From assembly GCA_964016885.1 (NCBI GenBank), contig OZ024743.1, positions 224,068,001 to 224,132,000 on the forward strand: 64,000 nt of DNA. Direction: 5' to 3'. Source of the DNA: Eledone cirrhosa. Taxonomy: Eukaryota. Every line of letters begins with the position of its first letter. The first letter of the stretch is position 1. Positions 6,393 to 11,062 of the stretch are shown here, one piece after another. Under the pieces are notes generated by a model. The model searched no databases and had not been told where the DNA came from. It worked only from the letters and a program-made list of their open reading frames with translations. The position numbers were made by a program, and so were the translations under genes.

Positions 6393-7044
6393 AAATGGCG
6401 AGGTGTGTTGTTGCAATTAAGTATAATAAATGAAGAATTAGAAATAGAAGTTAGGAATATCCGTCATCAGTTGTCTACTAGCCATCATAGGTATTTCTTC
6501 GCATTACAGACAATATACCTCCAGCTAGGGCTACACAATAACTAAAATAAGTTATTGGGATAAAAAGAGTTGGGTGGAGAAAGAGAGACATGTAAACAAA
6601 CACGAATGGCGAGGCAACGTAAAGAGAGGAAAAAATTAAAAAAATCAAGTCAATAATTCATTTCGAACATAAGAACGGGTGAATATTGACGAGAAGGTTA
6701 AGACACATCTTGGCCGTGCGGATGGGAGCGAGGAAAGGATCCCGTACGGTGTGGGACGATGGAGGAAGTGAGAGAGAGGGTGAGTAGCAGAGAGTGAGTG
6801 AGTGAGTGAATGTGCGAGGAAGAGGCTAGCCGAGAGAGAGTGTCTAGCAGAAGGGGTGAGTGAAAGTAAGAGGGAGAAGGAGAGAGAAGGGGGGGGGGGA
6901 GGATAGCAGTAAGGGAAGAGAAAAAAGACAGGTCACAGCGAAGGGGAAAGCATATATGAATAAAAAAATGGCGAGCTGTGTTGGTTGCAATTAAGTATAA
7001 TAAATGAAGAATTAGAAATAGAAGTTAGGAATATCCGTCATCAG
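6393..7044 (-). mobile_element. Non-coding terminally redundant PLE/retrozyme-like unit (family C, period ~574)
   Basis: Direct repeats 6393-6470 and 6966-7044, pyrimidine-rich sense strand, 3' end abuts (TA)n. Confidence 0.7.
6458..6562 (-). ncRNA. Non-circularly permuted hammerhead-like RNA, copy C
   Basis: Sense: tatcc..aggta-TA-ttgtct..GAAA-tacct..agacaa-CTGATGA-c-ggata. Confidence 0.7.
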
Positions 7045-7166
7045 ACGTCACACACTAGAGATGACTGAGGAAGGAAGGAGTGATGACGTCACACACTAGA
7101 GATGATTGAGGAAGGAAGGAGTGATGACGTCACGCACTAGATATGACTGGGGAAGGCAGGGGTGAT
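7044..7166. repeat. 41-bp minisatellite x3
   Basis: gacgtcacacactagagatgactgaggaaggaaggagtgat repeated three times with a few changes. Confidence 0.9.
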
Positions 7167-7699
7167 GTCAAACTACAGAAAATAGCGTCTAGCGTTCACT
7201 ACACTTGTGTGTACGATTGAAATACACACATACGTATACATACGCGTCAGCGTGTTGAAAAAAATTCTAGTTAAAAAACAAAACTCCATCACTCACATGT
7301 CACAATTTACTATGTGTATCTGATGGTTGAATAACAAAAGAAATATAAATACCGACATATCTCCTATGTCTTAATCAAAATAATATATCACATATCCATG
7401 CGTGATCGAGTGCTTGCGTAAGTTTGTCGTGATTTGGGGGAAAACGAAAATTGGTAATGATCATATTTCTGATTGAAACATATTTTCGCTCTATAATATT
7501 CTTTGGAAACGCTATCTCCTGCATAGACACACACACACGGGTGGAATAAAAGCCGAGGGGGGAGTCTGACAAATTAATAGGCGGAAGGTGGGGATGGTTA
7601 TTCAAGACCTGAGAGGACGGACATAAGAATGAAAATTCTTACTGCCGTGTCTTACTTAAATGAGAATCTATAACTAACCCTGTCTTTACACTATATTTC

Positions 7700-8346
7700 T
7701 GTTGTAGAAACGCGCATGTGGCTAATAAAAATCTTGTAAATTCCGTCTGAATCGTTTTTGACCAGATCTTTAGTTATGCTGACTGGATGGTTAGAATGCT
7801 TACTAATGTAATCTAATTTAACATGTCATTAAGCTTTCTATACGGGTAGCACAAGCCGCTCAAATTCACCACAGATAGGCTGGCCTTAACCTGAATGGAA
7901 AGGTTGAAGCCTTTAAAGAAAGCGATAAGCTTCTTTCTAAACCTATCAATAGCTCGGGATCCACACTTAGTCATAATCAAAAGACCATCATCACGATAGA
8001 GACGCCCACTTACTTTGGGGAAATTCATCCTTGATGGAAAAGAGTAAAAATAGACAAATAAGGTATGTGAACTCCACCGAATCACTGGTGCCCATGCTTC
8101 CGTTGAAGGGGTAGTATTTGATTTTTTAAGAGCTGTCGAAATTGATTTCAGGCTTATGAGCATTTAAGATGACATCAACTTCGAAATACTTAATCTCGGT
8201 GAGCGTTTTGTTGCAACTAATAGATCCAAGAAGTGGTAAAGTGATGGAAAAATAATAGTTGTTGATGTCGATTTAGATAAAGCGGCAGTGTTCCTTGTTA
8301 TGTATGCCCTTGAACCAATCAAACACCGCGAAATAATTATTCCCCA
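7700..8346 (-). pseudogene. Decayed PLE reverse transcriptase fragment (YRDDGL type)
   Basis: ORF 7813-8163 LYRDDGLLIM..IDRFRKKLIAFFKGFNL..YPYRK, homologous to 13293-14336. Confidence 0.75.
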
Positions 8347-8933
8347 TAATGCAATGAAATATCTATGATCTTCGGCAAATCACTGATGAGGGACTTATTT
8401 TATTACATGTTACCATGTGCGACCTGCAGTATTTTTCTCTATATTTTAATACATATATTTACCACTGCGATTCTGTGTTTTTTTCTCTCTCTCTTACTGT
8501 TCCCCCATTCTCTCTGTTTCTCCCCCTCTGTCTTGTCCGTTAACTCTTCCTCACACTTTCACTCACTCACTGTTTTTCTCCCTCTTCTCTTCATTTCATC
8601 CTGCACTCACGAACGCTATTTTTTCTCTCTCTGCTCAATAGCTTTCGTTCGTGTTGGTACTATTCTCTAAGCTCTCATATATTCACCTAGCTTATGCTAA
8701 ACGAATAATTTTTGAAGCTTGTTTCTCCCCTAAGGTATGCTATATTTTCTGTTGTTCTCCTGTCTCACTCGCTTTACGCGTTTTAATTGTCCTAATAACT
8801 TATTTTGGTTATTATTGCACCGAAGTGAGATATATGATTTTTAATGCAATGAAATATCTATGATCTTCGGCAAATCACTGATGAGGGACTTATTTTATTA
8901 CATGTTACCATGTGCGACCTGCAGTATTTTTCT
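8347..8933 (+). mobile_element. Non-coding terminally redundant PLE/retrozyme-like unit (family A, period 495)
   Basis: 92-bp direct repeats 8347-8438 and 8842-8933, CT-rich interior, followed by (TA)n. Confidence 0.7.
8789..8889 (+). ncRNA. Non-circularly permuted hammerhead-like RNA, copy A
   Basis: gtcct..agata-TA-tgattt..GAAA-tatct..aaatca-CTGATGA-gggac. Confidence 0.7.
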
Positions 8934-9092
8934 ATATATATATATATATATATATATATATATATGTGTGTGTGTGTGTGTGTGTGTGTGTGTGTGTGTG
9001 TAATAGTAAAAACTTGGTAAAAACAATATCCAAAGTGTCAAAGCACTCAGTCTGAGGCGAGTTGTGATATAAAATTAAATTACATTATTACA

Positions 9093-9258
9093 TCGGGAGA
9101 GGGTCGGACGCCATGCTTTGACGCATAGAGTTACGGCCCTTGCCATTCTGAGTTCAAATCCCGCCGAGGTTAACTTTGCCTTTAATCCTTATGGGGTCGA
9201 TAAAATAAAGTACCAGTAATACACTGAGTAATTGCAGGCCTTGTGCCAAAAGTAGAAA
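9093..9258 (+). mobile_element. tRNA-derived SINE (dominant family)
   Basis: B box gagttcaaatccc, core gggtcgataaaataaagtaccagt; flanked by attattaca direct repeats. Confidence 0.9.
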
Positions 9259-9272
9259 ATTATTACAACATG

Positions 9273-9395
9273 TGCATAACGCGAATACGCGCGTTTCTTT
9301 GGCATTTTAGATAACGCCAACTTTTCAATTTGCTATGTTATGACCGAATTGAAAAGTTGAATATGCTAATGAAACGCGCGTATCTGCATTATGCA
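9273..9395. repeat. Imperfect palindrome carrying a hammerhead 3' half on each arm
   Basis: tgcataa..tacgcgcgtttc..caacttttcaatt / aattgaaaagttg..GAAACGCGCGTA..ttatgca. Confidence 0.7.
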
Positions 9396-9967
9396 ATAGT
9401 TGTAGTAATTTAATTGTGTGTGTGTGTGTGTGTGTGTGAGTGTGTGTGTGTGTGTGTGTGTGTGTGTGTGTGTGTGTGTGTGTGTGTGTGTGTGTGTGTG
9501 TGTGTGTGTGTGTGTGTGTGTGTGTGTGTGTGTGTGTGTGTGTGTGTGCACATATATATGTATATGAGCAGAATAGAACCATCGCTGCGTAATGTGCATA
9601 TAAAGTTACACATTTGTAGTATATAAACATGTAGACACAGTTGCCGAGTATATGTATTTCTGTGAGATCAATCGAAATGACTATCAAACAAATCGAAACT
9701 TCTTTGTCGTTGTTGGTTGCGTCACGCAATTCACTACACACACGCACACACACACACACACTACACATTGCACACACACACAGAGACAACATAATCAACA
9801 TACACATACACACAAACATACACATACTCAACATACACATACGCATACACATGCATACATACACACCACACGCATACACTACACACAGACATACACTACA
9901 CACTCAGACAACGCCCACACAGTCGCATACCAACATATTCCCGCCTGTTCTGGTGTATATTATTTTG

Positions 9968-10148
9968 GGATTGGCAGTATCAGTAGAGAGTCGGACGCCA
10001 TGCTTTGACGCAAAGAGTTACGTCCCTTTACGATCTAAGTTCAAATCCCGCCGAGGTTAACTTTGCCTTTCATCCTTACGGGGTCGATAAAATAAAGTAT
10101 CAGTAATGTGCTGGGTAATTGCTGGCCTTGTGCCAAAAGTAGAAACAA
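9968..10148 (+). mobile_element. tRNA-derived SINE
   Basis: ggattggcagtatc...gttcaaatcccgccgagg...ggccttgtgccaaaagtagaaac. Confidence 0.9.
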
Positions 10149-10466
10149 ATATTTTGACTAAGATGAGCGAGATTTACCACTATCAATATATTTCTTATAT
10201 TTCGTCCAACTGATATAAAGTAGTAATTTATGACAGATTCACACAGCGTCTTGTCAGTGATTATGTTTTTCGATTAATTTGATTTCGCACCACCAGCTAA
10301 ATTATACATGTGTATGTGAATGCACAAATATATATATGTATATATATATATGTGTATATATATATATATATATATATATATATATATATATATATATATA
10401 TATATATATATATATATATATATATATATATATACATATTTATATATTTATATATTTATATATATA

Positions 10467-11062
10467 CTTGTCTATTTGTATTCATATGTTCATGTTCGCA
10501 ACAACGCAGCACGCCATTCTTCATTCACATATTTTTCCCTTCACTGTGGTTCGTATTTTTTCTGTCACTTTACTGTTATCACCTTTTCTCTCTCCTTCAC
10601 CACTTGCCTTCCTCAACTCCCGCTGCTGGTCACTCACTCTCGGCTGGCCCCTTCCTCCCACTTTCACTCACTCCCTCTCTGCTTCCCCCCCCCCCCCTCT
10701 CACTTCCTCCCGTCTGACCTGCTTGAATTTCTTTCCTCTCTCAATCTTCTCGCGGCTCGGACGTGTCTATTTCTCCTCGTCAATTTGATTTGTCGGGCTT
10801 AAGCTCACAGGATTCATTGACTTGTCTCTATTTTCCTCTCTTTACGTTGCATACCACCATGTGTTTGTTTCCTCCCCTCTGTTTTCCCACTGTCCCGATA
10901 ACTTAATTGAGTTATCGCTCGCACTGATTTTAGGTATCTAGTCTTTAATGCGTCGAAATACCAACGATAATCAGCAGACTACTGATGAGGACATTTTACC
11001 CCTTGTCTATTTGTATTCATATGTTCATGTTCGCAACAACGCACCACGCCATTCTTCATTCA
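10467..11062 (+). mobile_element. Non-coding terminally redundant PLE/retrozyme-like unit (family B, period 535)
   Basis: 61-bp direct repeats 10467-10527 and 11002-11062, (TA)n on both sides. Confidence 0.75.
10891..10993 (+). ncRNA. Non-circularly permuted hammerhead-like RNA, copy B (best preserved)
   Basis: tgtcc..ggta-TC-tagtct..gtc-GAAA-tacc..agacta-CTGATGA-ggaca. Confidence 0.75.

Follow-up and report, generated by a model that had tools for sequence, protein, structure and literature searches.

Permuted hammerhead motif in the Eledone cirrhosa locus

The stretch of DNA analyzed here (hereafter the window) comprises 64,000 nucleotides of the Eledone cirrhosa genome (GenBank assembly GCA_964016885.1, contig OZ024743.1, positions 224,068,001 to 224,132,000). 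It contains three copies of an RNA motif of about 100 nt (A, B, and C), each lying in an insertion of a short non-coding repeat (Table 1). A sequence-only reading had proposed that they are diverged copies of a hammerhead ribozyme with a scrambled, non-circularly permuted core. All three copies are present as it described, with AUA, AUC, and AUA triplets, five helices, and predicted cut sites; rather than being old paralogues, they belong to three separate high-copy repeat families, and copies 100% identical to A and B occur elsewhere. The analysis below suggests that the motif is most likely the self-cleaving end ribozyme of non-autonomous elements derived from Naiads, which are Penelope-like retroelements.

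In all window copies the conserved blocks follow each other from 5' to 3' in the order S-G-C (cleavage triplet, GAAA, and CUGAUGA, respectively), and the cyclic order C-G-S of hammerhead types I, II, and III is not kept. This order is that of the published type-SGC hammerhead (Eckert et al. 2023, PMC10085705), in line with the earlier suspicion that non-circular permutations had already been reported. The Rfam database gave no match in the window at the gathering score, and its 22 weak matches over 6400-11100 with E-values up to 10 include no ribozyme, neither a twister nor a hammerhead family. A covariance model search of the window found copies A, B, and C, of which A and B match by construction, being part of the model, and a 5'-truncated copy of ribozyme A, and nothing else.

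Table 1. Candidate ribozymes and the insertions that carry them (window coordinates)
Feature	Position	Strand	Details
Family-C insertion	6394..7044	-	~574-nt unit; terminal direct repeat (6394-6470 = 6967-7044); ends in (TA)n
Ribozyme copy C (family C)	6458..6562	-	Predicted cut between 6514 and 6513
Family-A insertion	8347..8933	+	Partial tandem of 495-nt non-coding unit; 3' end ~100 nt past predicted cut, then (TA)n
5'-truncated upstream copy of ribozyme A	8347..8395	+	Starts 7 nt 3' of predicted cut (8347 = 8842)
Ribozyme copy A (family A)	8789..8889	+	A17 = 8834; predicted cut after 8834
Copy A, P0	8789-8792/8886-8889	+	
Copy A, hairpin	8793-8799/8808-8814	+	
Copy A, stem II	8815-8819/8845-8849	+	UUGCA/UGCAA
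Copy A, interaction helix	8820-8825/8865-8870	+	
Copy A, stem III	8828-8833/8854-8859	+	
Copy A, stem I	8835-8840/8872-8877	+	
Copy A, core	8833, 8834, 8851-8854, 8878-8884	+	U16.1, A17, GAAA, CUGAUGA
Family-B insertion	10467..11067	+	535-nt unit; 66-nt terminal direct repeat (10467-10532 = 11002-11067); between (TA)n runs
Ribozyme copy B (family B)	10891..10993	+	AUC triplet; predicted cut after 10938
Copy B, stem II	10920-10923/10949-10952	+	CGCA/UGCG
Copy B, core	10955-10958, 10982-10988	+	GAAA, CUGAUGA

Fold and wiring of the candidate ribozyme

Examination of the three copies revealed a sixth helix, a real stem II, formed between the bases preceding GAAA and a strand that lies 5' of block S (position names follow the standard hammerhead numbering). 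It had been missed by the sequence-only reading, which took stem II to be reduced to about one pair. In window copy C, the 5' strand of this stem differs at two positions from most family-C copies, which read UCGC/GCGA. The bases 3' of CUGAUGA pair not with the stem II partner but with the 5' end of the RNA (helix P0); the G10.1-side strand of stem II is located at the 5' end, and P0 and a hairpin are inserted between A9 and stem II. The helix formerly described as an extension of stem III does exist, but corresponds to the interaction helix between stems I and II of Eckert et al.

We read this wiring as type-SGC with its ends joined by 2-3 nt and reopened inside block C, between A9 and stem II. 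Because the arrangement would work like type-SGC but lacks one of its defining features, an uninterrupted block C with the stem II strand 1-2 nt after CUGAnGA, it is best regarded as a new variant of SGC. The predicted split wiring is settled by a second clade in the same genome (five of the six copies parsed), in which a 5-bp stem II, GGCGC/GCGCC, places G10.1 from the 5' strand opposite C11.1, and the triplet is GUC or GUU. By analogy, the A9-10.1 step is a known tolerant site: the SGC-3 RNA carries an extra U there (parsed by eye from PMC10085705), and a viroid hammerhead tolerates an extra A (PMC3705267). SGC-3, which cleaves, also has 0 nt at the place where only 1 nt links the interaction helix to stem I in the window copies (oligonucleotides parsed by eye), which weakens the earlier concern that a monomer may be strained. 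Both AUA and AUC triplets are functional in hammerheads (PMC1636495).

Conservation and covariation

The alignment of 18 copies was hand-picked to represent subfamilies from 74 clusters, most of them truncated copies or chance matches, and from segments that had passed a stem I/stem III descriptor; P0 is off by one column in four of the 18 rows. The core elements CUGAUGA, GAAA, and U16.1 are invariant in all 18 copies, H17 is A or C, and A15.1-U16.1 with an unpaired H17 is present throughout. Overall, 90.1% of the cells are paired. Covariation in a larger alignment, on which the sequence-only reading had staked its claim beforehand, is present: 22 of the 36 pairs change on both sides, compared with 11.9±2.1 in shuffled alignments (1/500) and 1-9 in controls with a slid partner, including five of six pairs in stem I, two of six in stem III, and all six in the interaction helix. 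Double changes on the same branch of the tree number 25, against 4.5±2.2 (maximum 15) in 5000 re-pairings, and are distributed among the interaction helix (13), hairpin (4), stem I (3), P0 (2), stem II (2), and stem III (0). The family is also present in contigs from a second organism, with a two-sided change at the pair 8822/8868. Together with the S-G-C order, this covariation bears out the proposal of a non-circularly permuted hammerhead under structural selection.

Repeat families carrying the motif

The 3.0-Gb genome contains 21,340 matches to GAAAT-N22-CTGATGA and 133 to the reversed control, an excess that is not due to chance. The corresponding numbers are 2,524 against 158 for CGAAA-N23/24-CTGATGA and 930 against 0 for a 25-mer of family A. 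The first look at the genome gave 921, 1358, and 1865 candidates for A, B, and C, respectively; among the approximately 40 best-scored matches per copy, identity was 100% for A, 98-100% for B, and 95-100% for C. The stem I/stem III descriptor was passed by 23 distinct segments in 19 of the 30 first-listed GAAAT-N22-CTGATGA loci. Older, degenerate relatives with other stem sequences were also found (loci L388-L392, L440, L447, and L452).

The repeat units are 0.5-0.7 kb long and non-coding. They lie mostly in (TA)n and often form tandem or inverted arrays with as many as about 10 members, but many insertions contain a single ribozyme. Family A is represented by hundreds of identical copies; of the 58 3' ends mapped in this family, 34 coincide at a position about 120 nt past the predicted cut, and seven lie about 18 nt earlier. 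In the family-C terminal direct repeat, the 5' copy begins at CUGAUGA. Partial tandem, inverted, and 5'-truncated copies, a fixed 3' end, a microsatellite target, and the lack of an open reading frame (ORF) are traits of non-autonomous Penelope-like elements or retrozymes. Such insertion anatomy has been described for Penelope-like elements (Craig et al. 2021, PMC8557442), in which internal initiation of reverse transcription underlies fixed 3' ends (Frangieh et al., PMC11167929). Judging from this anatomy, the window copies are the ends of separate non-coding Penelope-like repeat families.

Several other repeats were observed in the window. A 41-nt tandem unit is present three times at 7044-7167, directly beside the 5' end of the family-C element. 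A short interspersed repeat of about 180 nt lies at 9092-9268 and 9968-10155, with at least eight more full or partial copies in the window. Long inverted repeats, either hairpins or similar to miniature inverted-repeat transposable elements, occupy 11160-11460 and approximately 45000-45170, and a broken Helitron with Helitron_like_N and PIF1 helicase matches extends over approximately 18400-22300 (+).

Proposed relation to Naiad elements

Naiads have been described as lacking a canonical hammerhead, some of them carrying 'HHR_core' or 'HHR_half_core' words; in eight cases, including Naiad_Ovul, the second half of the core was noted 'on either side' at 35-50 nt (PMC8557442). We inspected published Naiad consensuses, and the likenesses given here come from reading them by eye, not from a program-scored alignment. 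At their 3' ends, Naiad_Obim and Naiad_Ovul share with the window copies the helix order, the hairpin loop, the internal loop, and the 23-nt spacer between GAAA and CUGAUGA. The six-helix layout, with G10.1-C11.1 formed from the 5' strand, also ends Naiad_Amil, _Aacu, and _Anas, one Darwinula-region record, and two further, unassigned records that lie among Naiad-2_Movir, _Plae, and _Dcar. Thus, the split-SGC architecture is seen in a total of eight consensuses from corals, ostracod, and octopus. Four nematode Naiads (Naiad-2_Nbra, -3_Nbra, _Hcon, and _Asuum) end instead in type-CSG, which can be derived from the same reversed order by circular permutation. Naiad_Bfor fits in part, with a stem I of 2 pairs, and the records preceding Naiad_Adux and Naiad-1_Pfla in the consensus file of Craig et al. 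gave no fit. These counts are no census of the approximately 55 Naiads, because 53 of the 62 CTGATGA places and six other core words in the supplement were covered, and line breaks hide matches. We consider it rather probable that the ancestral ribozyme of many Naiads had the reversed cyclic order. It would have been retained in cnidarians, arthropods, molluscs, and nematodes, taking at least two forms: type-CSG, and a seventh wiring that is opened inside the catalytic block and falls outside the published six.

In the Eledone genome, the locus most like the published octopus Naiad end, L388, has no ORF upstream. No Naiad ORF (N-terminal GIY-YIG, CxC, and C-terminal reverse transcriptase, RT) accompanies the units of the window in cis or lies upstream of 13 longer ribozyme loci. 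A genome search with a short Naiad-derived motif, two mismatches allowed, yielded three chance matches only, and a search with a Naiad endonuclease query gave, among the 150 matches listed, of which eight were read, none with a long C-terminal part.

Remnants of Penelope-like elements are also present in the window. An ORF fragment with a C-terminal GIY-YIG-like motif and no Pfam match is tandemly duplicated at 941-1981 and 3055-4095 (+), and each duplicate is followed by a minimal hammerhead in canonical order (2183 and 4297, +), seen by eye and not called by the type-I descriptor. A Penelope-like RT remnant lies at 12710-14336 (+). Another remnant, at approximately 7500-8340 (-), is frameshifted and stands head to head with the family-A insertion; it was considered as a part of the family-A unit and rejected, being broken, on the strand opposite to copy A, and without any sign of belonging to it.

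Predicted cleavage and the insertion junctions

Cleavage, folding in cis, and mobilization by a Naiad protein are steps that we infer as parts of the best explanation. Under it, each copy would be a ribozyme at the 3' end of a non-autonomous Penelope-like retroelement. These elements would be short, retrozyme-like tandem units (about 0.5 kb) that arose from a Naiad terminal repeat. The ribozyme would most likely cleave in cis at the NUH triplet, cutting tandem transcripts into units; a Penelope-like RT would initiate at one defined position, 100-130 nt downstream of the cut, insert the copy into (TA)n, and often stop near the RNA 5' end left by the cut.

The positions of 5' junctions were analyzed in a sample drawn by patterns using blocks G and C only, both located 3' of the predicted cut. 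A close reference was available for 166 of the 185 segments, and 36 segments had a 5' junction between positions -61 and +16. After three inverted pairs had been merged and seven junctions re-read by eye, 33 remained: 22 fall in the 20 nt from -3 to +16 and 11 in the 58 nt from -61 to -4 (p 9e-7; without microsatellite flanks 11 against 3, p 5e-5), although the p-values are optimistic given these by-eye re-readings and windows set after the data had been seen. Individual cases agree with this distribution: L428 is an inverted insertion whose palindrome is centred on the predicted cut, L119 begins at the cut, and the window's own family-A insertion begins 7 nt past it. The step at the cut is possibly an in vivo footprint of cleavage.

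Alternative explanations

A number of observations speak against the interpretation of the motif as an active ribozyme of Naiad-derived elements. In the clade of the window copies, no helix is weaker than stem II (81% of cells paired, two pairs changing on both sides). The 10.1-11.1 pair is mixed (G-U, A-U, U-A, G-C) and is not G-C in most of the clade; the base after A9 is pairable in 12 of the 18 copies and mismatched in six. Pseudoknot-free folding finds P0 and the hairpin in all three copies but misses the stem III/interaction arm in B, and the z-scores are modest (-2.1, -1.8, and -1.4). The cephalopod Naiads were called long-dead remnants by Craig et al. (PMC8557442), yet family A is very young. 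Finally, 39 of 40 GIY-YIG loci examined align to an element with a C-terminal endonuclease, and the remaining one, as well as one more, is also of that type.

The loss of G10.1-C11.1 in most of the 18 copies would be expected if, in the window's clade, a hammerhead-derived fold cuts poorly or not at all and is kept as a binding or priming signal for RT, the junction pile-up reflecting stalling of the enzyme. A Poseidon element did not need hammerhead cleavage in vitro, and in the case of PAc none of the reads had its end at the cut (PMC11167929); in addition, family A has frequent 5' junctions not only at the predicted cut but also 28-75 nt downstream of it. Stalling in structure stays a rival because of these junctions and of the post hoc choice of windows. 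However, the catalytic nucleotides and an unpaired, non-G H17 are invariant although the helices have diverged between subfamilies, and the junction density falls about six-fold directly 5' of the cut though strong helices continue there, and so we regard a mere binding signal as improbable. Minimal Penelope hammerheads cleave as dimers, and the frequent arrays described above could allow an active ribozyme to assemble likewise from two or three units or two molecules, the local scrambled fold not being the active form. This is very unlikely: every pairing partner covaries inside one 100-nt stretch, many insertions have a single ribozyme, the canonical C-G-S order would need blocks of three successive units about 1 kb apart, and type-SGC RNAs of about 80 nt cleave during transcription (PMC10085705). 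The conserved UAAUGC word resembles the twister consensus nUAAYRC (supplement of Eckert et al., PMC10085705), but it varies (UAAAGC, UAAGCG, UCAGCG), the GAG and CAAG words have no counterpart in the 18-copy alignment, and none of the 22 Rfam matches mentioned above is a twister, which makes a twister reading hardly credible.

The remaining alternative competes with the last step only: the ribozyme would be as described, but mobilized by the abundant canonical Penelope-like elements with a C-terminal endonuclease. Near-intact canonical ORFs in the genome, the negative searches for a Naiad ORF, and the hundreds of identical family-A copies fit this proposal. Against it, ten canonical ORFs were checked: a minimal hammerhead in canonical order follows three, and the window motif follows none within 900 nt. 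In addition, the window motif matches Naiad 3' ends by eye, and the search for Naiad ORFs scored 150 of 10,596 GIY-YIG candidates in the genome. We consider mobilization by canonical elements possible, if not favoured. On balance, it appears quite probable that blocks in S-G-C order fold into a standard hammerhead core and that this RNA forms the self-cleaving end of Naiad-derived elements, the two being judged jointly.

Comparison with known systems and implications

Eckert et al. (PMC10085705) arranged blocks C, G, and S, assumed to be uninterruptible, in a scheme of six orders. They reported that type-SGC cleaves at a site analogous to the cut predicted here, that four of its helices are essential, and that 583 SGC sequences occur around viroid-like RNAs and in metagenome searches. 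The words Octopus, Mollusca, Metazoa, and Eukaryota are absent from their supplement. The window copies share with type-SGC (HRIMA-1 and the SGC variant) the block order, an intact core, a short linker between stems I and II (4 nt in the window, typically 3 in SGC), and an interaction helix that joins the other sides of these stems and abuts stem III. They differ in the split block C, with P0 and the hairpin inserted at A9-10.1, and in abundance, with more than 21,000 pattern matches in one animal genome. Type-CSG, known from two sequences (PMC10085705), has the same reversed cyclic order but is opened elsewhere and keeps block C intact. Naiads (PMC8557442) resemble the window elements in (TA)n targets, tandem and inverted truncated insertions, and, by eye, the 3'-end fold, whereas the latter have no ORF. 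Non-LTR (long terminal repeat) retrozymes and pseudo-LTR hammerheads (bioRxiv 10.64898/2026.07.22.740005) likewise arise from element ends and consist of short tandem units, non-coding and each carrying one hammerhead, but their hammerheads keep the canonical cyclic order; the accessible part of that preprint contains no passage on SGC, cephalopods, or permuted ribozymes.

Outside animals, TAATGC-GAAA-CTGANGA patterns occur in at least 117 metagenome and at least 120 viral loci. Among the matches listed, none of 117 and one of 120, respectively, passed the stem I/stem III descriptor, the single case being weak, with no P0 or hairpin seen. The covariance model applied to 80 metagenome loci gave one match at 25.6 bits, as expected from the search pattern itself. 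A repeat recurring in two metagenomes (L145, L161, L170, L179, L188, L191, L193, and L194) has two CUGAnGA-like words around GAAA and was rejected, as ribozyme stems are absent by eye. Hammerheads of canonical Penelope-like elements were reportedly described by Cervera and de la Pena in 2014. We found no publication linking permuted hammerheads to Naiads, Penelope-like elements, or octopus in a search that left most of the subscription literature outside.

The type-SGC order itself is already known; what appears to be new, judging from that search, is the split block C, the occurrence in animal retroelements, and the link to Naiads. The sequence-only reading had proposed neither the split block nor the Naiad link, and had not recognized the copies as ends of Penelope-like repeats. 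The assumption of six permutations, under which core blocks cannot be interrupted, would be broken, and the A9-10.1 site may accept a whole junction. Non-circular permutations, represented before by several hundred environmental sequences, would number tens of thousands of copies in a single animal genome, and the junction step at the cut may provide rare genomic evidence on the role of hammerheads in Penelope-like transposition. The findings address a stated puzzle, namely that Naiads proliferate yet 'lack canonical hammerheads' and have 'half cores' at odd distances, and the candidate answer is a directly testable RNA of 100 nt. If the reversed order is indeed ancestral in Naiads, animal genomes would contain non-circular hammerheads in abundance, the Naiad ribozyme would no longer be 'missing', and its cut would set the 5' end of the template copied into the genome.

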